Assembly (NCBI GenBank): GCA_964612055.1
Contig: CAZTBI010000001.1
Location: 356,824 to 420,823 of the forward strand
Direction: 5' to 3'
DNA length: 64,000 nt
Source: an uncultured Bdellovibrionales bacterium
GTDB lineage: Bacteria; Patescibacteriota; Minisyncoccia; Moranbacterales; UBA1568
Both the position numbers and the translations under genes were made by a program. The notes beneath the pieces were generated by a model. The model did not search any database. It saw only the letters and a program-made list of their open reading frames with translations, and was not told the origin of the DNA. Of this stretch, positions 141 to 62,540 are shown piece after piece (the stretch's first letter is position 1; each line of letters starts with the position of its first letter).

Positions 141-1964
141 CTATTTTTTCAACACAGCAAGAAAAGCACTCGACGGAATAGAAACTCTCCCCTGGCCCAT
201 TTCCTTGGCTTTTTTCTTCCCCTTTTTCTGCTTCTCCAAAAGCTTCTTCTTGCGTGAGAAGTCACCACCATACATGTAGCCGGTCACGTCCTTGCGGTAG
301 GCAGCAATCGTCTCCCGAGCAATCACCTTGCCACCGATAGCCGCCTGCAGAGCCACGGCAAAGTTCTGGCGCGGCAACACTTCTTTCAATTTTTCCACCA
401 CGCGCTTGCCCTCACTGTGAGCATCACGTTTCGGCACCATGCGAGCAAAGGCATCGACTGGTTCATTGGCCACCAAAATATCAAGCTTGATAACATCGCT
501 TTCTCGATAACCGATCAATTCATAGTTCATGGAAGCGTAGCCAGAAGAAGCGCTTTTCAAATCATCGTGGAAGTTCACGATCACATCCATAAGTGGCGCC
601 TCAAAAGAAAGCAGTACGCGCTCTTCGTCGATATATTCCGTATTCTTGTAATCAGCTCGGATAGACTGGCACAGCTGCATGACACCACCGAGGTATTCAC
701 TTGGCGCTACAATCGAAAGCGCCACATACGGTTCGTACATAGCTTCGATACTCGCCGGATCTGGCAGATCAACCGGCGAATACAGGGCAATATTTTTCTC
801 CTCACCTCGAATTTTCATTTCATATACCACCGATGGCGTCGTAATGGTCGGTACCAGACTAAATTCTCGCTCCAGACGCGCCTGAATAATTTCCAAATGA
901 AGCAGCCCTAGGAATCCACAACGAAAACCCCGACCGAGTGCCTGGTTACTTTCCGGCTCAAAAGTGAAAGCGGCGTCATTGAGTTTCAGTTTATCAAGGG
1001 CGTCACGCATAAGCGTGTAGTCGTCGCCATCCACCGGATACATACTGGCATACACAGCTGGTCTGATTTCTTTGTATCCCGGCAGCCGCTCTACCACGGT
1101 CTGGTCACGATCTTTCTTTTTCCAGGTCACGGTATCACCGACCCGGCAGTCAGCCACGGCCTTCAGCCCAGTAGCTACATACCCAATATCACCAGCACGC
1201 AAAACATCGGTCGCCACAAGATTCGGATGGAAAAGCCCAACCTCGACTGTCACGCCCTCTTTTTCCGTCCCGAGCATATGAAGCACATCGTCACGCTTCA
1301 CAGAACCATCAACGACTTTCACATACGCCACGACGCCCTTGTAGGTATTGTAGACGGAATCAAAAATAAGAGCCCGCAGCGGCGCCTCCTCATCACCCTT
1401 TGGTCCCGGCACTCGCTCAATCACACGCTCCAGTACCGCCTGCACGCCGAGACCGGTCTTCCCAGAAGCGAGGAGGATATCTTCTTCTTTGACACCCAGA
1501 ATATGCACGATTTCTTTCTTTGTTTTTTCCACCTGGGCATTTGGCAAATCAATCTTGTTGATTACTGGAATAATCTCTAATCCCTGTTCAATGGCCAAGT
1601 ACAGGTTCGCCAAAGTCTGAGCCTGCACACCTTTGGTGGCATCAACGAGCAAAATTGCCCCTTCGACAGCCGCCAAAGAGCGGGATACTTCGTAGTGAAA
1701 GTCGACATGTCCTGGAGTATCAATCAGATTGAGCATGTACTCCGTTCCTTGGTAGGCATAATGCATCTGGACTGGCTGAAGCTTGATAGTAATACCGCGT
1801 TCACGTTCCAGGTCCATTTGATCGAGCAACTGCTCCTTCATCTTGCGCATTTCTACCGTTTTAGTCAGCTCAAGCAGCCGGTCAGCCAGAGTCGACTTTC
1901 CGTGATCAATGTGCGCAATAATACAAAAATTGCGGATATTTTGTTGACGTATACTTTTGTCCAT
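141..1964 (-). CDS. lepA: Elongation factor 4 (LepA), translational GTPase
   Basis: 607 aa. G-domain motifs AHIDHGKST and DTPGHVDF, and a LepA-specific C-terminal domain. ATG start confirmed in the sequence. Confidence 0.95.
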   Translation of the reverse strand: MDKSIRQQNIRNFCIIAHIDHGKSTLADRLLELTKTVEMRKMKEQLLDQMDLERERGITIKLQPVQMHYAYQGTEYMLNLIDTPGHVDFHYEVSRSLAAVEGAILLVDATKGVQAQTLANLYLAIEQGLEIIPVINKIDLPNAQVEKTKKEIVHILGVKEEDILLASGKTGLGVQAVLERVIERVPGPKGDEEAPLRALIFDSVYNTYKGVVAYVKVVDGSVKRDDVLHMLGTEKEGVTVEVGLFHPNLVATDVLRAGDIGYVATGLKAVADCRVGDTVTWKKKDRDQTVVERLPGYKEIRPAVYASMYPVDGDDYTLMRDALDKLKLNDAAFTFEPESNQALGRGFRCGFLGLLHLEIIQARLEREFSLVPTITTPSVVYEMKIRGEEKNIALYSPVDLPDPASIEAMYEPYVALSIVAPSEYLGGVMQLCQSIRADYKNTEYIDEERVLLSFEAPLMDVIVNFHDDLKSASSGYASMNYELIGYRESDVIKLDILVANEPVDAFARMVPKRDAHSEGKRVVEKLKEVLPRQNFAVALQAAIGGKVIARETIAAYRKDVTGYMYGGDFSRKKKLLEKQKKGKKKAKEMGQGRVSIPSSAFLAVLKK

Positions 1965-48861: not shown

Positions 48862-49173
48862 TCACTTGCCTTCGATGCGGTCGGTGCCGGTGCGGTTGCC
48901 CACCGGTGCGTTGGTTGCCGCGGCAGTGTCGGTCTTCTTGCCGGCCAAGTTGTCGAGGAAACCGCCGACCCATCCGTGAACGGCAGCGCCTGCCTTCCAG
49001 CCGGAGCCAAGCGTCGTGTTGCCCTTGTCGTCACTGCTCTTGCCCTGACCAGCCATCCATTGGCCGCTGGCCTTCATGCCGCTCGAGCTGCTCTCCAGCA
49101 CCGTAGCGCAGCCGCCGAGTGAGAATGCCATCGTGGCGAGCATCAGAGCCAAAGCCATACGAATCGTCTTCAT
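48862..49173 (-). CDS. Small lipoprotein (signal peptide plus lipobox LGGC), GC-rich
   Basis: MKTIRMALALMLATMAFSLGGCAT. Perfect TTGACT-17-TATAAT promoter at ~49221-49249 embedded in a 14-bp-arm palindrome. Two tandem terminators at 48755-48827. The ORF-track start at 49206 is a TTG. Confidence 0.5.
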   Translation of the reverse strand: MKTIRMALALMLATMAFSLGGCATVLESSSSGMKASGQWMAGQGKSSDDKGNTTLGSGWKAGAAVHGWVGGFLDNLAGKKTDTAAATNAPVGNRTGTDRIEGK

Positions 49174-49220
49174 GGGGACCCTGCCTTTCGTAAAGAACCG
49201 AACCAATCGTCGGTAGCCCT

Positions 49221-49272
49221 ATTATACCACTTCCAAAGCTCAAAGTCAATGGTATAATAGGGCTTATACAAA
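49221..49272 (-). promoter_or_regulatory. Perfect TTGACT-17-TATAAT promoter inside a palindrome with 14-bp arms (GCCCTATTATACCA / TGGTATAATAGGGC)
   Basis: Seen directly. Drives the lipoprotein gene. Confidence 0.55.
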
Positions 49273-49318
49273 AGAAAAAGCCGCCCCTTTCGGAACGGTT
49301 CTGTGGGAATATTCTCCC

Positions 49319-50692
49319 CTACTGCTTCGCCTCTGACCGAAGAAATGCTCGCGCACTCACCCAGTCTTTGACTTTCTCCTTGGTGAAGTGCCGATAATAC
49401 GGCGAGAGCCTCTGCCAAATCTGACGAATTCTCGCCGTGACAGCCCCGACCTTCATACCAAAGTATTCGCCTGCTTCTTTGTAACTTCTCGTACTCCCGG
49501 AACCGGGGAGGCCATAGCAATAGCAGAACAGCTCATGATCTCGTGTGGTAAGTCTCTCCCGAGATGTAGCCCACACCATGTCAAGCCTGGCCTGGATGAG
49601 CTCTAACCGCCCTGCCACTGAAAGGGTAGGGCTCGAATGCGTCACAGGCTTTTCCTTCCCTGCCACTGAAGGAGCGAGGTCCGAATGCGTTGAAATGTCT
49701 TCCCAGGAGAACTCACCCTGAGCGATTTCTTCGAAATAAGGAACGCCCGCCATCGCCCGTTCAAACACCTCTTCGGTGAAGATATCCTTGGGCACTTTCT
49801 TCCATATACCCTCCTTGATCTGCCGGATCCGCTCTCTTGTCAGATTGAACTGCTTCCCCGTCTCCTCAAGAGTTCTTCTCTCCCGATCAGCATCGAGACC
49901 GTAGAAATAGATGAACACATCGGAACGGTCATGCGCCATACCGGTACGGAGATACCGAATCAACAGGCTCACTTTTCTGGAAATTTCCTCCAGTTCTTTC
50001 CGAGCCTCAATGACCAAAGAAGGCTCTATGCTGTTCGGGTCGGCGACGGTATCGCTGATGGTGAGGTCTCCAGATTCTCCCTTGGTTTTCATAGGCTGCT
50101 CAAGCGAGGCCACCCCTCTCTCGTGAAGGAGGCGCAACATCTTCTCTACCTGCTTCTCCGTCAGCCCTGTCGCTGCGGCAATGTCTCGTCGGGTTGGCAC
50201 CACACCTTGAGCCAGTAAGCGCTCTTGGACATAGAGTACCTTTGAAACCAACTCTCCGACATGCGTAGGGAGACGGATGAGGCGACCCTGTTGAATGACA
50301 GCCTGAGCAATGCGTTGACGGATCCAGTAGGTCGCATACGTAGAGAACGCTGCCTTCGCCGGATCATATTTTCGAGCCGCTATCATGATCCCGATGGTTC
50401 CTTCTTGCATCAAGTCCTCAAATTCGAGGCCTTTTCTCAGGTATCGCCGGGCTATCACGTGCACCAATCCAAGATTGTGTCGAACCATCTTGTCGAGGGC
50501 GGCCTCATCTCCGACGCGGATACGCGCTGAGAGGGCATTGACCTCTTCTTGAGGAAGTACCGGGTAACGTTTCCGATCCGAAGGGAGACGACGTAGGGCC
50601 GTCTGACTATCGGAAGAAGGAGCTTCTCCGCTCAGATATCCCTCCCTCTCCAGAGAGGCCTCTGAGACGAAGTCTTGATCGACGTCTTTCAT
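49319..50692 (-). CDS. RNA polymerase sigma-70 family factor with an apparent tandem duplication of region 4
   Basis: Regions 1.2-2 (YATYWIRQRIAQAV), 3 and 4 (YFYGL...TLEETGKQFNLTRERIRQI), then a second region-4-like segment (CYCYGL...SYKEAGEYFGMKVGAVTARIRQI) at aa ~360-430. AGGAGG RBS. Confidence 0.85.
   Translation of the reverse strand: MKDVDQDFVSEASLEREGYLSGEAPSSDSQTALRRLPSDRKRYPVLPQEEVNALSARIRVGDEAALDKMVRHNLGLVHVIARRYLRKGLEFEDLMQEGTIGIMIAARKYDPAKAAFSTYATYWIRQRIAQAVIQQGRLIRLPTHVGELVSKVLYVQERLLAQGVVPTRRDIAAATGLTEKQVEKMLRLLHERGVASLEQPMKTKGESGDLTISDTVADPNSIEPSLVIEARKELEEISRKVSLLIRYLRTGMAHDRSDVFIYFYGLDADRERRTLEETGKQFNLTRERIRQIKEGIWKKVPKDIFTEEVFERAMAGVPYFEEIAQGEFSWEDISTHSDLAPSVAGKEKPVTHSSPTLSVAGRLELIQARLDMVWATSRERLTTRDHELFCYCYGLPGSGSTRSYKEAGEYFGMKVGAVTARIRQIWQRLSPYYRHFTKEKVKDWVSARAFLRSEAKQ
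49611..49690. repeat. Imperfect 32-bp direct repeat (period 48 bp) inside the sigma-factor gene linker
   Basis: CCTGCCACTGAA...CGAATGCGT occurs twice. Encodes the 16-aa repeats ...APSVAGKEKPVT / ...PTLSVAGRLELIQ. Confidence 0.55.
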
Positions 50693-50797
50693 GCAAACCT
50701 CCTAGAGAAGTGAAACAAAAAAAGAGTTGTTAAAGACCCTTAGGAATATTCCCATGCTTGCATTTCTATCTAAGATAGTCAACCAGAAGCAAAGCCT

Positions 50798-51157: not shown

Positions 51158-52006
51158 TCAATCGTCACTGTCACCTTTCGGCGATAGCTGGCGCCAGGCC
51201 AACTGTCCGATACCCGCGACTGCCGAAAAGATCCCAGCGAAGATGAAAACCGCATCAGCTGCAGCTCTGATGGCATTGTCATGATCCCGAAAAACATCTT
51301 CTTCGAGGGCAGCACGCCACGCGCCAGCCGTCAGGTAAACGTAGATGACGATGCCGACCCAGAAAAGAGGAGACATCTCTATGGCTCCCATCCCGAGCAG
51401 AGACCTGGAAGTCTCAGAAGCAAACTCCCAGAACACAAAGCCCAGAAAGAGCGCCGCATTCACCACGCCAGCCAGCGCCCAACCATCTTGAAACACTTCG
51501 GTGAAGCAGAATGCCACTAAAGATATAGCGGCAATGATGACTACCGTGGTCATGACTGCCATGAACACTTCCGACCAGTTGAGGAGCGCCGTCATTGACC
51601 CAACCGCTAAGCCGAGAAAGATCATCGTTCCAAGCACGCCTGCCAGGGTGCTACTCGGCTTACCTTCCTGGTGTGCCGAGTAGAGACAGATGAGCGCCAT
51701 CACAAGACAGGCCGCCGGGGCAGACCAAGTCGGATGGAGCCAAGCGTGACCGAGTGCCACCGTACTGCCGAAGATGAGCGCCAGCAGCGCCGAATAACCG
51801 GTCATGCCTCGAATGAAACCTTCTTTACTCCACTCCTTCGGCTCCTGGTGCGCCGAAGCAGACATCACATGTGACATGATGGACTCCTTGTAAAGTTGCC
51901 CTGTGAAAAAACCGACCGAGATCGGCACCGTACGACTCAATGAACTGCCAATAGTATACACCTCTATCGGATAAAATATCCTACTCCCCCACCTGTTATT
52001 CGTCAA
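51158..52006 (-). CDS. Hypothetical polytopic membrane protein (282 aa), GC-rich
   Basis: Six or more hydrophobic helices. No motif. Confidence 0.45.
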   Translation of the reverse strand: MTNNRWGSRIFYPIEVYTIGSSLSRTVPISVGFFTGQLYKESIMSHVMSASAHQEPKEWSKEGFIRGMTGYSALLALIFGSTVALGHAWLHPTWSAPAACLVMALICLYSAHQEGKPSSTLAGVLGTMIFLGLAVGSMTALLNWSEVFMAVMTTVVIIAAISLVAFCFTEVFQDGWALAGVVNAALFLGFVFWEFASETSRSLLGMGAIEMSPLFWVGIVIYVYLTAGAWRAALEEDVFRDHDNAIRAAADAVFIFAGIFSAVAGIGQLAWRQLSPKGDSDD

Positions 52007-54007: not shown

Positions 54008-57000
54008 TTATTCACCTAACTCATTCGCCAGAAGTTCAGCTTGCTTCAAAACATTTTCGGTCGCTACCAACTGTTCATCGGGCGGATATCCATAACGATT
54101 CAAAATACGCTTCACATCTCGACGCAAACGCGCCCGGACACTCTCCTTGAGCGTCCAATCAATCGTCGCATTCCCCTTTACACTTCGGAATACCTCAATC
54201 GCTATCACGGCCAACTGCTTATCACCCAGTACTTCACGAGCGTTTTCGTTATTAGCAAGCGCATCATAAAATGCCAACTCATCTTCAGCGAGATCCAGTT
54301 CTTCTCCACGTTTGTCTCCTTCCCGAATATCTTTGGCAAGCTTGATCAATTCCTCAATCACCTGCGTTGTTGTGAGTAAATTGTTCTGATACTTCTTGAT
54401 GGCATTTTCGAGCATCTCCGAAAGCTTCCGACTCTGAATGAAGTTTTTTCTCGTCCGTGTCTTGATCTCATCATTCAATAATTTCTTCAACAATTCCAAG
54501 GCAAGATTCTTGCGCTCCATATGGCGCACGTCCTCCAAGAACTCATCCGAAAGAATAGAGATGTCTGGCTTCTTGATCCCGGCCGCATCAAAGACATCGA
54601 CGATACCTTCTGATACCACGGCCGCATCTACGATTTGCCGGATAGCCGTTTCAATTTCCAAATCAGACTTACCCGTTCCGGCTGGCTCAAACTTGGTCAA
54701 TCGTGCCTTTACCGCTTGGAAAAACCCAATCTCATCCTTCAACTCCATCGCTTTCAGGTTTGGCACGGACAGAGCAAAGGCTTGCGAAAGTAACCCCACC
54801 TCACGGGTAAACCGATTCTTGCCATCATCGAGTCCGAGCACGTGTTCCTGTGCCTCAAGGATCACCGTCAATTTCTCCCGGGTATCAGCCGAGAAATATC
54901 GTTTGTACTCAAATCCGGTAAACATCTGCTCGACGACTTCGAATTTTTCCAATAGCTTAGCAACTACTTCCGACTGGTCCAGTGTCGGCGTACCTTTGCC
55001 ACCACTCGATGTATAGGTCGCCAGAGCCGTTTTCAAATCAGAGGCGATGCCGATATAGTCCACGATGAGCCCTCCGGACTTATCCTTGAATACGCGATTC
55101 ACTCGAGCGATCGCTTGCATCAGATTGTGTCCACGCATCGGCTTGTCGACATACATAGTGGAGAGGCACGGTGCGTCGAATCCCGTCAGCCACATATCCC
55201 GCACGATCACCAGTTTCAGCGGATCGCTCGCATCCTTGAACCGCTCACCGAGCGCTTTGCGATTCTCTTTGGTGGTATGGTGCATCTGCCAATTTTCTGG
55301 ATCCGAAGACGATGACGTCATCACTACCTTGATTGCACCTTTTTTCAAATCCTGATCATGCCACTCGGGACGGATTTTCATTATCGCCTCGTAGAGCTCT
55401 ACAGCGATGCGCCGACTCATACAGACGATCATCGCTTTCCCCTCCATTGCTTCTTGGCGTTTCTCGAAATGATCCACGATATCAGTCGCCACTATCCGCA
55501 AACGGTCACGGTGTCCGACGATTGCTTCGAGCTGCGCCCACTTCGCCTTGGCCTGCTCGGCTGCTGTACTCTCTTCTCCTTCGGTAATCGAAGCAACCTC
55601 GTCATCGAGCCGGGATTTTTCTTCATCCTTCAAATGCACCTTAGCCAAGCGTGATTCGTAATAAATCCGCACGGTCGAACCATCTTCGACTGCCTGAGCG
55701 ATATCGTAAACATCGACATATTTCCCAAAGACCGCAGGTGTCGAGGCATCCTCTTTTTCAATCGGTGTCCCGGTGAATCCGATGAACGACGCATTCGGCA
55801 AAGCGTCACGCAGATACTTGGCAAAGCCGTATTTAGTGAAGACTTCTCCGTCTTTCTCGGTCGTCTTGGCACCAAAGCCATATTGACTCCGATGAGCTTC
55901 ATCCGCCACGATGATGATATTTTTTCGCTCAGAAAGCATGTCAAAGTTCGCCGCACCATCCGCTGGGAAAAATTTTTGTATGGTTGTGAAAACGATACCT
56001 CCACCCGTTACCCGAAGCAAGTTCTTCAATTCCTCACGATTGCTCGCCTTCACCGGATCCTGTCGCAACAACTGCTTGCAACTCGCAAAGGTATCAAAAA
56101 GTTGTTCGTCCAGATCGTTGCGGTCAGTGATAACCACTACTGTCGGATTATCCAGTGCCAAGACCACTTTGCCGGTATAGAACACCATCGAAAGCGACTT
56201 GCCACTCCCCTGGGTATGCCAAACCACGCCAGCCTTGCGATCGCCCGCTTCACTCGATGCTTCCATGGTCGAAATAATCGCCTTGTTCACAGCGAAGTAC
56301 TGGTGATAAGCAGCAATCTTTTTCACGGTGACGACTGACACTATCCCTGTCTTCGGATCTTCTTTCTTCGACTTTTCAAAAACAATAAACTGCCGAATCA
56401 GATCAAGTAGTACTTCTCGTGTCATCATCCCATGCACGAGCGTCTCGATCTGAGGCACTGTCGCTCGGTCCTCTTTCACACCATCCCGAGACTTCCACGC
56501 GAGGAAGCGCGACATGTCCGATGATATCGTCCCGACCCGAGCATCCAGTCCATCCGATGCGACCAAAAGTGCATTGTAATAAAAAAGCGATGGAATGGCA
56601 TTTTTGTAATTCTGAAGCTGGGTATAGGCTTTGTGGACTGTGGCGTTTTCATCCACTGGGTTTTTGAGCTCGATCACCACCAGCGGTAGCCCATTAATGA
56701 GGAGCACTACGTCGGGACGCTTGGTCACATTATTCTCGATCACGGTGTACTGATTACGCACGAGGAATTCGTTTTTTGTGACATTTCCGAAGTCAACCAA
56801 ATGCACTTTCTCGCCTTTTACTCCATCCGTTCCCATCACTTCTACCTCGATCCCTTCGGTGAGCATGCGATGAAACGCCTCATTGTTGTCCATCAAGTTC
56901 TGACTCGGTAAATTGAGCACAAGGCGCAAAGCTTGTTCTTTGGCTTCTTCTGGGATACTCGGGTTGATCCGGTCAATCGCCTGCTTCAATCGTTCCCGTA

Positions 57001-57124
57001 ACACTACTCCACCAAGATCGGGTCTTTCTTTCTCTTGATCCTCAGGCGACAAATACTCGAACCCTTGGGATTCCAAAAGCTCAATCATGAATTCTTCAAT
57101 CGTAGATTCAAATATTTTGGTCAT
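54008..57124 (-). CDS. hsdR: Type I restriction enzyme R subunit (HsdR)
   Basis: 1038 aa. N-terminal PD-(D/E)xK region, SF2 helicase motifs (TQGSGKS, DEAH-like VADEAHRSQ, motif VI) and the HsdR C-terminal domain. Confidence 0.9.
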
Positions 57125-57597
57125 GACTTTCTACCCTTTGATTCTTGGATTATTATCTGCGCCAACATCCCAAACATTCTATATCCATAAAATAGGTTAA
57201 ACAAAAATACAGAAGTAAGGAGATAACTAGACTTACTGTCCATATAAACATTATTAACTCCACTCTGATTCAGTAGAAGGATAAGCACAATAATATATAG
57301 TATTGAAGCCAAAACAACAAGCATCCCTACCTTATACTTAAAGATAAGAGCGTGTAACAATGTTTGTGATTTATCTTCGCTATCAGTCAAGCTATAAAGA
57401 CTAGTAACATACTTAGACGTTGAAAAAATAGCAAAACTTGTTACGTAAAACCCAAAGGCTATTGAAAGAAAAGTTACAACATTCGTTAATAAATCAACTT
57501 TCAAAACAAAGCCTTGAAGGAAAAAATTTTGTAAGTAATATCCGCCGATACCAAATATAAACAACTCGACTATTAGTCTTTTATACTGCGGTTTCAT
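57121..57597 (-). CDS. Unknown 4-TM membrane protein embedded between hsdS and hsdR (candidate defence effector)
   Basis: 158 aa, very AT-rich. Start overlaps the upstream gene by 17 nt and the stop overlaps the hsdR start by 4 nt, so translationally coupled. Confidence 0.55.
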
Positions 57598-58408
57598 TTT
57601 GTTTTATTTTAGTGATTAGTGATTCAAAAAGATTGTTCTCATAGAGCTTCCCTGTTTTATCATCAGTAACTCCATCTACTGATATCTTATTCACCACTCC
57701 ATCAGTATTAAACACGGACGAAAAGTCATCTGCTGTTCTTCCGACTATTGTCAATTTTTCAAAAGTACTCTTTTTTCCTATTATAGACCGCATCTTATCT
57801 TTTACGCTACCGATAGTCATCCCTCTTTTATATCTCAAAATCAATGTTGCTTCATCTGCGCCAAAACCATATATATCCTCTGATAGTTTTGCAGAAAGTA
57901 ACTGCGAATCATACTGATTGAACAAATTAGGCACAACAGTTAAGGACACTTCAGAAACGCTTTTTATTTTATTGATGAATTCTTCTTTATCAAAGAGCGG
58001 TTTTATAACCACTTCAGCACCAGTCTTCTCTGCGAGCCAACCGATCAGGGTATTTACCCTTCTTTGGTCCGATATGTAGATTATTTGAGTATTTGCATCA
58101 ATAAGGGCGAATACCTGATCATTTGTTTCTATTTCTTCTGGTGACTTTGGATTATCATGCTCCTTCAGACTAGCGGAATCAACAACCATCGGAGAGTAAG
58201 GCCATTTTTCTCCTTCTTGAAAATATAACCCTATAAACCGACTCTCGAACTCTACTTTTTTAAAAATCCGTATAGATATGACTTCTTGGTCTATTTTAAA
58301 CGGCTCAGTATGACTCCCTGGTATTCTTCCTGAAAAATCAAAAACAAAGCGATTATCGTCAACAATCATCTGGTTTGCTGAAAATGACACTTGCTTTACT
58401 TTGCCCAT
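57581..58408 (-). CDS. Unknown soluble protein (275 aa) embedded between hsdS and hsdR (candidate defence sensor)
   Basis: AT-rich. No TM. No recognisable catalytic motif. 5-nt gap to the hsdS stop. Confidence 0.55.
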   Translation of the reverse strand: MGKVKQVSFSANQMIVDDNRFVFDFSGRIPGSHTEPFKIDQEVISIRIFKKVEFESRFIGLYFQEGEKWPYSPMVVDSASLKEHDNPKSPEEIETNDQVFALIDANTQIIYISDQRRVNTLIGWLAEKTGAEVVIKPLFDKEEFINKIKSVSEVSLTVVPNLFNQYDSQLLSAKLSEDIYGFGADEATLILRYKRGMTIGSVKDKMRSIIGKKSTFEKLTIVGRTADDFSSVFNTDGVVNKISVDGVTDDKTGKLYENNLFESLITKIKQNETAV

Positions 58409-58413
58409 AAAAG

Positions 58414-59613
58414 CTACTTACTTATCGTTACTTCTCCGCTCATCAACTTTGGCAAAAGAGTGTCTCTGAGGGTTAAGAGGGTTTGGATTTGAGAATCATT
58501 ATTCCAGATTTTGTATTGCAATGGCTTTATAACTTCGGCAAATTCATTCGCAATATTTGGCGTTGGAACAATATATTTTTTCTGCTCAAAATCCGGCCAA
58601 TGCCCCTTGTATTCGATAAATGATACTTGGCCGAGAGTCATATAATAAACAAAGAATGTACTATACTCGATGTTTCCCCGAAATGGAAGAACGTTTTGAA
58701 TCGCACAAAATGAATAATTCACAAACCACATATTACATGTATGGTTTGTAAAAAGAATCACTGGGTTTTCCGTGCTCGCTTCAAAATCCGCTGCGCGAGA
58801 TGTATAACCATACAAACCCGTTGAGCCCTGATCAAAGATCGGTGTTTTTCCTTTCGAATCTAGATCATCTTTATCACAACGGTAACTTACCGAATGCTTT
58901 TTGATTACATCTTTCACCGTCCCGACTTTCCACCCCTCTGGGATTTCGCCGAGTTCGGAGTCGATCATTTTTCCACCGGAGGACTTATAGGGTTTGCCTT
59001 CAGCGTTCGGAAAATTGAAATTCACAAACCATTCTTTGAAAATCGCCTGCGCGGTCGCTTCAAGTGTTTTATTCTCCTCTCGCAAAAGTTCAATCTTATC
59101 ATCCAAACTCGAAAGCACCCCCGCAATTTCCTTTTGCTCAGGAAGAGATGGAAGAAGAATTTTTGTTTTTAGCAATTCCGACTGTTTTATACCCGTGACA
59201 GTTGACCCTGATTCCCTACTCTTCAATTGATGCTGATAGTATTTGCTATCAATAAAGTAATTAAAGAAAAAAGAATCAAGAATATTCTTCTTTGTTCTTA
59301 TTCCAAAAATTCGCTGACTTAAAACTAACTTCTCCTCCGATTTCCAAATAATATGCTCTCCTAGAGGAGCCTCTGAGGTCAAAAAAATATCGCCGTACTC
59401 AACCTCTTCTTTCATCCACTTCCTATACAAATTCTCTGACAAAAGATTCATCTGTCCCTCATTAACCAATTGACCATTTTTGATTGACTTTGCGGAAATA
59501 GCCCTATATCCGACCACGGACCAGTCTCCGCCCATTTTTTTAGGCGTCATCCCTCTATGGTCGATTATAATATCAACTGCTTTTCCTAAAGTTGTTTCTT
59601 TCCATTCGTTCAT
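58414..59613 (-). CDS. hsdS: Type I restriction-modification specificity subunit (HsdS)
   Basis: 399 aa with two target-recognition domains separated by the conserved central coiled-coil (LPSLPEQKEIAGVLSSLDDKIELLREENKTLE) and the C-terminal conserved repeat (LLTLRDTLLPKLMSGEV). Confidence 0.85.
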   Translation of the reverse strand: MNEWKETTLGKAVDIIIDHRGMTPKKMGGDWSVVGYRAISAKSIKNGQLVNEGQMNLLSENLYRKWMKEEVEYGDIFLTSEAPLGEHIIWKSEEKLVLSQRIFGIRTKKNILDSFFFNYFIDSKYYQHQLKSRESGSTVTGIKQSELLKTKILLPSLPEQKEIAGVLSSLDDKIELLREENKTLEATAQAIFKEWFVNFNFPNAEGKPYKSSGGKMIDSELGEIPEGWKVGTVKDVIKKHSVSYRCDKDDLDSKGKTPIFDQGSTGLYGYTSRAADFEASTENPVILFTNHTCNMWFVNYSFCAIQNVLPFRGNIEYSTFFVYYMTLGQVSFIEYKGHWPDFEQKKYIVPTPNIANEFAEVIKPLQYKIWNNDSQIQTLLTLRDTLLPKLMSGEVTISK

Positions 59614-59615
59614 AC

Positions 59616-60605
59616 CTATTCCAATTCAAAATCAGTAATTTCATTTGCCTCATCTATTGTTGATGTTATATATGCATCCGTGCTATCAACAATAGTGCCG
59701 CCATCACTATCTTCCCTCTCCAGATCCAAACCAACATATGTTTCGACTAAAAATACCCCATCTATACCCAGACTGCTATCCCCTTCAATTTTTTCAAATT
59801 TAGTACATTTATTCAAAATTTCAACTCCGACGATATCAAATTCCTCACCATCTTTTTCCCATTTCTCAATATTGTACTTAATATAGTCCTTAATCTGATC
59901 ATCAAAATATGATGTTTGTATCAGAGAGAAAATTTCTTGATTTTCAATAATATCAGCATATGAACTCTCTATTTTTGCTTGTAAAAGAGATAGGTCTTTA
60001 ATTATTTCAAGACTCTTATTCTTTTTTTCAATAAACTCTCTTTCGCATCCGTCGAACCCAGAATCATCCGTTAGAAAAAATATTTCATCGTAATAAGTAG
60101 TATTAGAAAAGTTTTTCAAAAGAGTTTCCCATATAACCACATCTTTGAATCCAGCATCGGTTCCCTTTTTAAACGGCGCTCTTTTCTCTACGGACCTGTT
60201 AAGAATATTTCTAAACATTTCTGCGTGATCGCTTTTGTCACTACAAAGAATTTTTATATGATAATTTTTAGTAAAAAACTCTTTTTGCTTTTCGTTAAGA
60301 AATTTTTTAATATCTAAATCAAAAAATTCAACCTCCTTAACAACGCCTACTTCTTGTAAAGATTTCGCAACTGACTTAAATCTCGACACATCAGTTGCAT
60401 ACTGATCAGTCTTCTGTTTTAACAGTTCACGAATAACAATTTCTGGAACAGCTATATGCACGTAATCTTTAAGTCCCTTCTCTTTGATGAAAGAGTCTAC
60501 GAATTTATAGTCGCCTCCCAATACAAAATCTGCGTATCGCAAGTCACTATTATTTGAATCTCTAAGCTTATTTGTATCAAACACTATAAGTGTTTTATAA
60601 GACAT
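59616..60605 (-). CDS. Unknown AT-rich protein between hsdM and hsdS, possible PIN-like nuclease fold
   Basis: N-terminal LIVFDTNKL resembles PIN strand 1 (hhhDTN). Candidate acidic residues at IRELL and FLTDDSGF. 2-nt gap to hsdS and 16-nt gap to hsdM. Confidence 0.5.
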   Translation of the reverse strand: MSYKTLIVFDTNKLRDSNNSDLRYADFVLGGDYKFVDSFIKEKGLKDYVHIAVPEIVIRELLKQKTDQYATDVSRFKSVAKSLQEVGVVKEVEFFDLDIKKFLNEKQKEFFTKNYHIKILCSDKSDHAEMFRNILNRSVEKRAPFKKGTDAGFKDVVIWETLLKNFSNTTYYDEIFFLTDDSGFDGCEREFIEKKNKSLEIIKDLSLLQAKIESSYADIIENQEIFSLIQTSYFDDQIKDYIKYNIEKWEKDGEEFDIVGVEILNKCTKFEKIEGDSSLGIDGVFLVETYVGLDLEREDSDGGTIVDSTDAYITSTIDEANEITDFELE

Positions 60606-60621
60606 ACACTAAAAAGTTTAA

Positions 60622-62169
60622 CTACGGTTTCAACCCGATCTTTGAAAGTTGCTTCTTTATTTCCTCGTTCAGCTCTTCTTCCTTTTCCATCTGTTGTTTC
60701 AATGTTGCTGTCAGATCAGCAATCTTTTTCTCAAACGGAATACCATCATTAACTTCATCGGGAATACCGACATAGCGCCCTGGGGTCAAGACGAAGTTGT
60801 GTTTGGTGATATCCTCGATTGTCGCAGATTTCGAGAATCCTTTTTTGTCTTCGTGCTTCCCCTCTTTGCTTCGCCATTCATGATAAGTGCTCGCGATCAT
60901 CGCCATATCCTCATCGGTGAATTCTTTGTGAGTCCGATCAGCCATATGCCCGACTTCGCTCGCATCGATGAAGAGGATTTCACCCGTACGTTTACGGTCA
61001 CCATTGCCGGTACGCTTGCGTGAGAGAAACCAGATACATGCCGGGATGCCGGTGTTGTAGAAGAGTTGCTTCGGCAAAGCGACGATACAATCTACCAAAT
61101 CATGTTCGATGAGTGACTGACGAATACTCCCTTCACCACTGGTTTGACTCGAGAGCGACCCGTTAGCCAAGACACACGCCATCACGCCTTTCGGTGAAAG
61201 ATGATAGATCATGTGCTGCAACCAGGCAAAGTTGGCATTGCCGGCTGGTGGCATCCCATATTGCCACCGCGGATCATTAGCTAGGAGTTGCCCTGACCAG
61301 TCGCTGTCATTGAAGGGTGGGTTGGCGAGGATATAGTCGGCCTTCAAATCTTTGTGTGCGTCATTCAAAAATGATCCTTCAGTGTTCCACTTCACCTGTG
61401 ATCCATCGATCCCCCGAATCGCCAAGTTCATCCGACAGAGACGATAGGTAGTCTGATTGCTTTCTTGTCCGTAAATAGAGATATCATCTACCTTTCCTTG
61501 GTGACTCTCCACGAATTTCTCACTCATAATAAACATCCCGCCCGATCCACAGGCTGGGTCATACACCCGGCCGCTATGGGGCTCGATCATTTCTACCATC
61601 AGCTTCACGATCGATTTCGGCGTGTAGAACTGACCACCTTTCTTGCCTTCGGCATTGGCGAATTCTCCAAGGAAGTATTCGTAGACTCGCCCAAGAAGAT
61701 CTTTACTCTTGGCTGCCTCGGTCCCAAGCGCGATATTCCCCACGAGATCGATCAGTCCACCGAGCGCAGTTTTGTCGAGATTCGGACGAGCATAGACTTT
61801 GGGCAGAATACCTTTCAAGGTCGGATTTTCTTTCTCGATCGCCTCCATCGCATCATCGAGATCCGTGCCGATACCGGGCTGCTTGGCTCGTGCATGGAGA
61901 TAATTCCAACGAGCTACTTGCGGAACAAAGAAAACATTTTCCGCCCGATATTCATCAGCATCTTCCGGATTGGCATCTTTGAAGTCTCCTTCTCCAGCTT
62001 TTATTTTTTCGTACAGCTCCTCGAAAGAATCTGAGATGTATTTGAGGAAAATAAGCCCAAGGACAATATGCTTGTACTCAGCCGCATCCATATTCTTGCG
62101 AAGCTTATCCGCCGCCCGAAAGAGGATCTTTTCAAAAGCCTCTGTTTTCTGGTTATCATTTTTCGCCAT
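60622..62169 (-). CDS. hsdM: Type I restriction-modification DNA methyltransferase subunit (HsdM), N6-adenine MTase
   Basis: HsdM N-domain (ILFRAADKLRKNMDAAEYKHIVLGLIFLKYISD). SAM motif I (DPACGSGGMF) and motif IV NPPF. The true start is the internal ATG (MAKNDNQ). The upstream 93 codons of the ORF-track frame are spurious read-through over the GFA gene. Confidence 0.9.
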   Translation of the reverse strand: MAKNDNQKTEAFEKILFRAADKLRKNMDAAEYKHIVLGLIFLKYISDSFEELYEKIKAGEGDFKDANPEDADEYRAENVFFVPQVARWNYLHARAKQPGIGTDLDDAMEAIEKENPTLKGILPKVYARPNLDKTALGGLIDLVGNIALGTEAAKSKDLLGRVYEYFLGEFANAEGKKGGQFYTPKSIVKLMVEMIEPHSGRVYDPACGSGGMFIMSEKFVESHQGKVDDISIYGQESNQTTYRLCRMNLAIRGIDGSQVKWNTEGSFLNDAHKDLKADYILANPPFNDSDWSGQLLANDPRWQYGMPPAGNANFAWLQHMIYHLSPKGVMACVLANGSLSSQTSGEGSIRQSLIEHDLVDCIVALPKQLFYNTGIPACIWFLSRKRTGNGDRKRTGEILFIDASEVGHMADRTHKEFTDEDMAMIASTYHEWRSKEGKHEDKKGFSKSATIEDITKHNFVLTPGRYVGIPDEVNDGIPFEKKIADLTATLKQQMEKEEELNEEIKKQLSKIGLKP

Positions 62170-62189
62170 ATCTGTCTTTCCAATCCTAA

Positions 62190-62540
62190 TTACATGCTCT
62201 TCCCATCGAACTTCCCTGATTGCAGGGTTGAGAGGTCGACGCCCTGCAGACAGCGGACGTTTACCATGACGGTGGCGTTGCCGGCTTGATCGGTGCCGCG
62301 GCCGAAAGACTGGACTCCGCAGACTTTGCAGAAAAGATGAGCGATTTTCTTGGTGTTGAAGCGATACTCTGTAAGCATGTCCTCCCCCGAAAGTAGCGTG
62401 AAGTTCGCTGCCGGGACAAAGGTCAAGATGAAGCCCTTTATCTCGCAATGCGAACAGTTACAGGTAAACGTTTTCGTGAGGTCCGCCTCGACCTCATACT
62501 TCACCACCCCACAATGACACCCACCAGTATATTTTTGCAT
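62190..62540 (-). CDS. GFA-family (glutathione-dependent formaldehyde-activating enzyme/CENP-V-like) Zn-binding protein
   Basis: GGCHCGVVKYEV ... CNCSHC ... Cys pattern typical of the GFA family. Start set to MQKYTGG. Confidence 0.7.
   Translation of the reverse strand: MQKYTGGCHCGVVKYEVEADLTKTFTCNCSHCEIKGFILTFVPAANFTLLSGEDMLTEYRFNTKKIAHLFCKVCGVQSFGRGTDQAGNATVMVNVRCLQGVDLSTLQSGKFDGKSM

Follow-up and report, generated by a model that had tools for sequence, protein, structure and literature searches.

Does this sigma factor carry a second copy of its own region 4, and what might such a copy do? The stretch of DNA that raises the question, here called the window, comprises 64,000 nucleotides of contig CAZTBI010000001.1 (positions 356,824 to 420,823 of the forward strand; assembly GCA_964612055.1), which is deposited under an uncultured Bdellovibrionales bacterium and placed by GTDB in the Moranbacterales of the Patescibacteriota. 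A gene of 457 codons plus stop with an ATG start, at 49319..50692 on the minus strand, encodes a sigma-70-family factor that continues for about 155 amino acids (aa) after region 4. In bacterial RNA polymerase, promoter specificity depends centrally on the sigma subunit, whose sigma2-sigma3-sigma4 plan is considered very stable; the Candidate Phyla Radiation (CPR) has very small regulatory repertoires, and its transcription is almost unstudied. We consider it highly probable that the protein has a tandem-sigma4 architecture and that this arose by internal duplication. The first region 4 is called copy a (unit a) below, and the second sigma4-like domain, in the extension, copy b (unit b). A full-text literature search, which was not exhaustive, found no description of a duplicated, tandem, or second region 4 in a sigma factor, in agreement with the statement in the original prediction, a note made from the nucleotide sequence, that this architecture was undescribed.

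Three Pfam profiles matched the whole protein above their cut-offs: Sigma70_r2 with 67.2 bits (cut-off, 24), Sigma70_r3 with 25.6 bits, barely over its cut-off of 25.3, and Sigma70_r4 with 42 bits (cut-off, 24.1) in two stretches. These matches bear out the earlier assignment to the sigma-70 family with regions 2, 3, and 4. On the minus strand, region 2 occupies residues 69 to 136 (50285..50488; Sigma70_r2) and region 3 residues 147 to 224 (50021..50254; Sigma70_r3). They are followed by unit a, a canonical region 4.1-4.2 with an intact -35-reading helix, TRERIRQI (residues 224 to 300, 49793..50023; Sigma70_r4), and by its trailing helix with an acidic motif, P.LEELA....W(E/Q), that occurs family-wide (residues 301 to 331, 49700..49792). 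A variable, predicted-disordered linker (residues 332 to 358, 49619..49699; predicted local distance difference test [pLDDT] below 50 at residues 334 to 355) leads to the extension's four-helix sigma4-like domain, unit b (residues 359 to 429, 49406..49618), which was recognized by hhalign, AlphaFold2, Foldseek, and a residue table. The protein ends in a basic tail with a PYx(R/K)H motif and a terminal helix (residues 430 to 457, 49322..49405), and this tail is homologous to the unit a trailing helix, since the hhalign alignment runs through it. The segment HELFCYCYGLPGSGSTRSYKEAGEYFGMKVGAVTARIRQIWQRL, on which the original prediction had based its second region 4, lies at residues ~386 to 429. 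The plan is sigma2 - sigma3 - sigma4a - acidic helix - variable linker - sigma4b - basic tail.

When the 156-aa extension was searched exhaustively with HMMER against 1.84 billion representative proteins, only eight clusters were returned, all with the match at the same C-terminal place. The cluster proteins are 426 to 488 aa long, except for one of 275 aa; they are 31 to 37% identical to the window protein in the full alignment and have the whole domain plan in common. At least 17 member sequences were found, from NCBI, ENA, MGnify, and Logan assemblies. The closest, P0001, comes from another sample and has 457 aa, 95% identity to the window protein, and no indels; between the two, the ratio of synonymous to nonsynonymous changes is 26:14 in the core and 8:7 in the extension. 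Three of the other loci (L028, L030, and L113) share neighbors with the window, namely, DUF1905, an S9-type hydrolase, GSDH, DUF167, and a glyoxalase-like gene, which identifies them as orthologues in related genomes and not as scattered fusions. Thus, orthologues with the same extension, which had been proposed as a check, do exist, as P0001 and seven further clusters. A word-indexed protein search with the extension alone or its alignment gave no match, not even to P0001, which reflects the limit of such an index for short divergent queries and not absence, as the exhaustive search found the family. The scan of GTDB genomes with the whole protein retrieved only distant sigma cores from a collection that lacks the window's orthologues, and neither PHROGs nor PADLOC had a match for the extension or for the stand-alone protein P0123 described below; a match to MzaA was confined to the sigma core. 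A metagenome scan with the pattern FSTYATWW was rejected, being swamped by ordinary RpoD genes, and its one longer match, L100, turned out to be a 403-aa RpoD of the usual kind. As far as the search shows, the tandem-sigma4 family is confined to a handful of Moranbacteria-like genomes (CPR/Patescibacteria).

One locus of the family is split. On the 2,778-bp contig L111 (Logan SRR22388067), a 362-aa sigma factor (360-1448) stops soon past the acidic motif and has no copy b, and a second open reading frame (ORF) at 1560/1608-2435 encodes P0123, a protein of 275 to 291 aa that consists only of a sigma4a-like unit, the motif, the linker, copy b, and the tail. P0123 and the C-terminal part of the neighboring sigma factor share 42% identity over 125 ungapped residues, and both sigma4a-type recognition helices of this locus are degenerate (TGEGARQ and SGTRSHQ). 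The arrangement suggests, as read from this contig, that the module may exist, and perhaps act, in trans.

By the single-profile test that had been proposed for the second segment, copy b is borderline. Alone, it scored 17 to 18.2 bits (E = 0.002 to 0.004) against Pfam Sigma70_r4 (PF04545), below the gathering score of 24.1; the match spanned profile positions 4 to 48 of 50, and copy b was matched at an E value of 1 or less in 3/9 family members. Stronger profile tests support the homology. The two segments of the window protein matched each other in BLASTP at an E value of 3e-6, and hhalign aligned copy b with the family's own region 4 at 98.7% probability (E = 3.7e-16; 67 columns) and with copy a including the trailing helices at 99.1% (E = 8e-19; 96 ungapped columns). 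Against region 4 of 14 canonical RpoD proteins, copy b reached 89.7% (E = 2e-6; 59 columns) and copy a reached 98.9% (E = 2.6e-17). Copy b is therefore nearer to the family's own copy a than to canonical RpoD region 4, as expected from an ancient internal duplication. Residue states agree with this. Both copies have W at the L595 position, where canonical RpoD has no W, and Y at position 563, which is F or Y in canonical RpoD; the derived states common to both copies mark copy b as a paralogue of the region 4 of this lineage itself. Judged by the extent of the alignment, the duplicated unit is about 100 residues long and comprises helix 4.1, the 4.2 helix-turn-helix (HTH), and the trailing helix.

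The predicted structure gave the same picture. AlphaFold2 helices in copy a (residues 224-251, 254-263, 275-282, 286-299, and 307-324) are mirrored in copy b (359-380, 383-393, 404-411, 415-428, and 438-456), and copy b, with a pLDDT of 86 to 97, is the part of the protein modeled with the highest confidence; the trailing helix at 307-324 has a pLDDT of 77 to 81 in the full-length model. The helix at 359-380 mirrors 224-251 and is the 4.1-like helix that had been claimed to precede the second segment. Copy b is thus predicted to adopt a sigma4 fold of helix 4.1 plus a three-helix HTH bundle. In a Foldseek comparison of the extension model with the PDB, the best 50 matches were all sigmaA/sigma70 chains or isolated region 4 (probability, 0.6-1.0; E, only 0.04-0.3), and the best viral fold matches were phage sigma factors. 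The best small-domain matches were engineered chimeras of sigmaA region 4 and the beta-flap tip, with 7kug_D aligned over 96/96 columns at a template modeling (TM) score of 0.56, and complexes of sigmaA region 4 with WhiB proteins and with phage G1 ORF67 were also among the matches. The full-length match to 7kug_D hints, on the model, that the terminal helix may occupy the flap-tip groove of copy b and leave the real flap to copy a. Taken together, the profile-profile, BLASTP, and fold comparisons sustain the original claim of two tandem sigma4-type domains.

The linker between the copies contains a short DNA repeat, which the original prediction had read as a sign of an internal duplication history. 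The repeat itself is real: two 33-nucleotide (nt) direct copies with a period of 48 bp lie at 49610..49690 (49610-49642 and 49658-49690) and are identical at 26/33 positions (79%), a number that none of 1,000 codon-shuffled sequences reached (maximum, 24), while Tandem Repeats Finder did not call it. It encodes THSDLAPSVAG(K) and THSSPTLSVAG(R), at residues 335-346 and 351-362, in the hypervariable, predicted-disordered linker, where it touches the first turn of helix 4.1b. It occurs only in the window protein and in P0001, whose linker is the family's longest, and units a and b have no residual DNA similarity. From this distribution, the repeat is a recent, independent microduplication of 16 codons; it has nothing to do with the ancient domain duplication, and as a trace of that event it was ruled out by its position in the linker, its restriction to these two proteins, and the missing DNA similarity between the units.

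The two copies differ most at the positions that read the -35 element. Positions are given here in Escherichia coli sigma70 numbering, which is self-consistent with the published R584-Q589, H455/E458, and W433/W434. The equivalents of T583, R584, E585, R586, R588, and Q589 are kept in copy a of the full-length members, with conservative Q at positions 585 and 588 in P0121, and copy a should, by these residues, read a TTGACA-type -35 element. In copy b of the window protein, the positions of R584, E585, R586, R588, and Q589 hold V, G, A, T, and A; across the nine sequences they are unconserved, with residues that differ from member to member. Copy b keeps the structural positions Y563, G564, L565, F580, V587, W595, and L598 and has conserved motifs of its own, M..AT.RE in helix 4.1b and L.PY.(R/K)H past the HTH, as well as invariant Y393, V418, W426, and H435. 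On this residue pattern, copy b is a domain in which the fold has been kept and the -35-reading residues have been lost.

Conservation, expressed as mean pairwise identity by region across the family alignment, was highest in region 2 (48.7%), followed by copy a (35%), region 3 (32%), and copy b (27.4%, with 3.8% gaps), and was lowest in the linker, which is 1 to 27 residues long (14.9%, with 59% gaps). Charge is distributed unevenly along the C-terminal half: the segment after copy a is acidic in 7/9 members (net charge, -4 to -6), the copy b tail is basic in 8/9 members (+2 to +7), and the net charge of the copy b HTH spans -4 to +6 among members.

What kind of sigma factor carries this module can be narrowed down. 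The protein resembles group 1/2 sigma-70 factors (RpoD/SigA and RpoS) in having regions 2, 3, and 4, with 35 to 43% identity to RpoD over the core and a canonical region 4.2 (TLEETGKQFNLTRERIRQI), and the best full-length NCBIfam models for the core are of the RpoS/RpoD type. However, it scored only 151 to 167 bits against the NCBIfam RpoD models (cut-offs, 354 to 572) and 177.1 bits against RpoS TIGR02394 (equivalog cut-off, 378.7). It also differs from group 1/2 factors in having no Pfam match to region 1.1 or 1.2 (PF03979 and PF00140), both of which are found in the RpoD matches, and in its extension, which is absent from the best 119 nonfamily matches (these cover 52 to 65% of the query). 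The -10 and extended -10 readers vary within the family as well: position 437 is Q/N/R/A/K/Q/Q, and 440, 455, and 458 are also variable, whereas 14 RpoD matches have Q437 in 14/14, H455 in 14/14, E or D at 458, and T440 in 10/14. By these membership tests the protein is a sigma-70-family factor and not RpoD, RpoS, or an extracytoplasmic function (ECF) sigma factor. A strictly conserved -35 reader next to a variable -10 reader points to an alternative, nonhousekeeping sigma factor, and the lack of regions 1.1 and 1.2, the varied -10 residues, and the extreme rarity of the family argue in the same direction.

The best overall explanation, to which we give an even chance of being right, is an alternative sigma factor with a tethered pseudo-sigma4 as a regulatory module. 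The unit of about 100 residues (4.1, the 4.2 HTH, and the trailing helix) was duplicated in tandem long ago. Copy a would be the working sigma4, in contact with the beta-flap and with a -35 element of the TTGACA type, and copy b would be a pseudo-sigma4 that is tethered at the upstream face of the holoenzyme and acts via protein contacts rather than by reading a further -35 sequence. Its most probable role would be that of an on-board regulatory module, which could modulate copy a or the acidic trailing helix or could present a partner of sigma4 with a decoy or a docking surface. A regulatory mechanism of this kind we propose tentatively. In a more specific form, which is possible but somewhat doubtful, the on-board sigma4 mimic would control the engagement of the sigma factor with RNA polymerase or the promoter, for example by swapping with copy a on the beta-flap or by clamping copy a through the pair of acidic helix and basic tail until a signal arrives, in cis in the fused proteins or in trans in the L111 arrangement. 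The complementary charges of the segment after copy a and of the copy b tail are a hint toward regulation, and so, by the ECF parallel described below, is the lack of a recognizable anti-sigma gene beside the sigma gene in five contexts, where unknown small proteins may hide one. The 7kug_D match and the split locus L111 are further hints in this direction. The intramolecular, anti-sigma-like autoinhibition that the original prediction had offered as one meaning of the extension is compatible with the data and close to the reading favored here.

If the on-board sigma4 mimic is real, it would represent a previously unknown, self-contained form of sigma regulation by domain duplication, and a conserved sigma4 duplication with one reader and one nonreading pseudo-domain would add a new way to build regulation into a sigma factor. 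Should copy b prove to be a sigma4 mimic, either flap-tip-capped or partner-binding, it would also lend itself as a natural tool to probe sigma4 interactions.

Known systems offer partial parallels. In ECF sigma factors, fused C-terminal extensions inhibit the sigma factor in ECF41 and are required for activity in ECF42 (PMC3426412; bioRxiv 10.1101/2019.12.11.873521); these extensions are SnoaL-like (ECF41), TPR (ECF42), or Cys-rich (ECF238) (PMC3426412, PMC7671368, bioRxiv 10.1101/2019.12.11.873521), and the lack of an adjacent anti-sigma gene correlates with fused regulatory extensions (bioRxiv 10.1101/2019.12.11.873521). The window protein may be similar: its conserved C-terminal extension of more than 50 aa has evolved together with the sigma core, and no recognizable anti-sigma gene lies beside the sigma gene in the five contexts, unknown small proteins aside. 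It differs from ECF sigma factors in having region 3 and from the extended ones in that its extension is a paralogue of its own region 4, a type that is not among the ECF extension domains in the available parts of the surveys. PhyR is a second parallel: its sigma-derived domain is no longer a sigma factor and decoys a sigma-binding partner (PMC4551977, PMC4814048). A similar logic would apply to copy b and to P0123, the stand-alone sigma4-sigma4b protein. However, PhyR mimics a whole ECF sigma factor (sigma2 plus sigma4) in a separate receiver-domain protein that binds the anti-sigma factor NepR, whereas here sigma4 alone is copied and is fused to the sigma factor itself, with no Response_reg domain by Pfam and no known NepR-like partner. 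Region 1.1 autoinhibition and sigma4-binding regulators (Rsd, AsiA, FlgM, and WhiB-type proteins) mask or remodel sigma4. The family lacks region 1.1, but its copy a is immediately followed by a conserved acidic segment; unlike region 1.1, this segment is C-terminal and not N-terminal, and the comparison with region 1.1, Rsd, AsiA, FlgM, and WhiB is an analogy only, as no relation in sequence or fold was found. By analogy, the protein most resembles the extended ECF sigma factors and PhyR mimicry in its mode of action; it is a sigma-70 factor in which, unusually, the regulatory-type extension is a degenerate duplicate of the factor's own sigma4.

Several points weigh against the regulatory explanation. 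The full-length AlphaFold2 model has a predicted TM score (pTM) of 0.35, so its interdomain geometry is not confident, and the Foldseek E values are weak in both the PDB and the viral libraries (0.015 to 0.3). The family is tiny, with eight clusters, which makes the conservation statistics thin, and the split form of L111 rests on one 2.8-kb contig. No binding partner for copy b was identified. The 64-kb window contained no other sigma gene and hence no separate housekeeping rpoD. Finally, an HTH fold with a basic tail, placed beside DNA upstream of the -35 element, may make nonspecific or lineage-specific DNA contacts.

This last point leads to the strongest rival, that copy b is a second DNA-binding domain that binds upstream of the -35 element, at a second -35-like element or a tract resembling an UP element, so that promoters would be tripartite or bound with extra affinity in a lineage poor in activators. 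We consider it unlikely, but it has several observations on its side. The HTH fold is retained at high predicted confidence, the tail is basic (+2 to +7), and the recognition helix often has an R close to its end (R.W.RL pattern); by the established geometry of the holoenzyme, a domain C-terminal to sigma4 would be expected to lie upstream of the -35 element, and the orthologous sigma promoters have T-rich tracts 5 to 10 bp upstream of it, although these are not in register. The residues themselves tell against it, since copy b shows no conservation at the five -35-reading positions, its recognition helix has not acquired another conserved set of polar residues, and the HTH varies in net charge from -4 to +6. 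A linker of 1 to 27 residues also fits poorly with a fixed spacing of two DNA elements. Promoter sequences gave no support: the window contained 2 TTGAC-N(8-38)-TTGAC pairs, versus 5.6 expected, and no conserved second hexamer was found upstream of the sigma promoter in seven loci. Thus, the tandem -35 hexamers that had been suggested as a check were not enriched in the window, and the duplicated or bipartite -35 recognition that the original prediction had envisaged was not supported, given the scrambled copy b reader, its variable charge, and the missing upstream hexamer.

A neutral relic, in which copy b would be a decaying duplicate without a function of its own, is very improbable. Such a relic would be expected to resemble copy b in that the DNA-reading residues are lost, that it is the least conserved structured part (27% versus 35% in copy a), and that it falls under the Pfam threshold. 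However, copy b has been kept without truncation or indels in eight clusters at about 31 to 37% identity to the window protein, has gained the invariant positions listed above, has the protein's highest pLDDT, and is retained in the stand-alone paralogue P0123. Its 27% identity with 4% gaps, set against 15% and 59% in the adjoining linker, indicates a constrained domain. An artefact, in which a frameshift, a misassembly, or read-through would have joined the sigma gene to a downstream HTH gene, can be dismissed almost entirely: separate genes do occur in the family, as the C-terminal half is a separate ORF in L111, but the frameshift fusion that would have undone the original prediction is excluded by the same 457-aa ORF without indels in an independent sample (P0001), by cluster members from several sources, by seven other clusters of 426 to 488 aa with the same architecture, by a terminator directly past the stop codon, and by copy b itself, whose closest similarity is to copy a of the same protein.

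The gene that encodes this putative self-regulated sigma factor is, by its flanking signals, a self-contained unit with its own promoter, Shine-Dalgarno sequence, and terminator, all on the minus strand. The promoter at 50754..50782 has the -35 element TTGACT (50782..50777), a 17-nt spacer with an extended -10 TG, and a weak -10 element, AAGCAT (50759..50754); the Shine-Dalgarno sequence AGGAGG lies at 50703..50698, and an intrinsic terminator-like hairpin with a T tract lies at 49281..49298, 20 nt past the sigma stop codon. In an alignment of the upstream regions of seven loci (the window, L001, L028, L030, L111, L112, and L113), TTGAC(A/T) with a 17-nt spacer was present in 7/7, as were A at position 2 and T at position 6 of the weak -10 element, and TG at spacer positions 15-16 was present in 5/7. 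The 5' leader contains a conserved block, TCTTTAACAA, at 50727..50736, with the family consensus GGTCYTTAACAA, which was found in six of the seven orthologous leaders, with a variant in L112. This block was not enriched elsewhere in the 64-kb window, and the leader RNA had neither an Rfam match nor a convincing consensus fold (-0.35 kcal/mol). The block could serve as an operator or a translational control element. TCYT in GGTCYTTAACAA can pair with the Shine-Dalgarno AGGA. In L112, the start called for the 488-aa protein P0125 (2422-3888) is probably about 38 codons too far upstream, because the TTGACA promoter and the leader fall inside the called N terminus and the family alignment begins at an internal MTYGSRDD.

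The genes around the sigma gene are varied. Neighbors in the five contexts include Cdd1, DUF1294, DUF5671, DUF167, and hydrolases. Large membrane proteins recur near the sigma gene, with DUF5671 at L028 2828-4126, L030 9505-10797, and L113 18-1184, and small DUF1294 or Cdd1 proteins recur as well. In the window, an ORF of 282 aa at 51158-52006 on the minus strand, near the sigma gene, is multipass and has no Pfam match. Directly downstream of the sigma terminator, at 48862-49206 on the minus strand, lies a 114-aa lipoprotein-like, Gly-rich ORF (MKTIRMALALMLATMAFSLGGC...) without a Pfam match; in the other loci, it is not conserved beside the sigma gene. This ORF is driven by TTGACT-17-TATAAT with TG at 49221-49249 (11/12 matches), which is the region's best promoter of the sigma-70 type.

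Elsewhere, the window holds ordinary chromosomal genes, including LepA (141..1964; MBP9698057.1), MurJ, UvrA, UvrC, a penicillin-binding protein (PBP), and a Mur ligase. L030 carries a methylase-helicase pair upstream of its sigma orthologue. In the window itself, a type I restriction-modification locus occupies 54008-62448 on the minus strand, with HsdR at 54008-57124, HsdM at 60622-62448, and further ORFs between them. The lowest G+C content of the window, at 56 to 62 kb (0.38 to 0.44, versus about 0.48 elsewhere), coincides with this locus and suggests that it was acquired horizontally.

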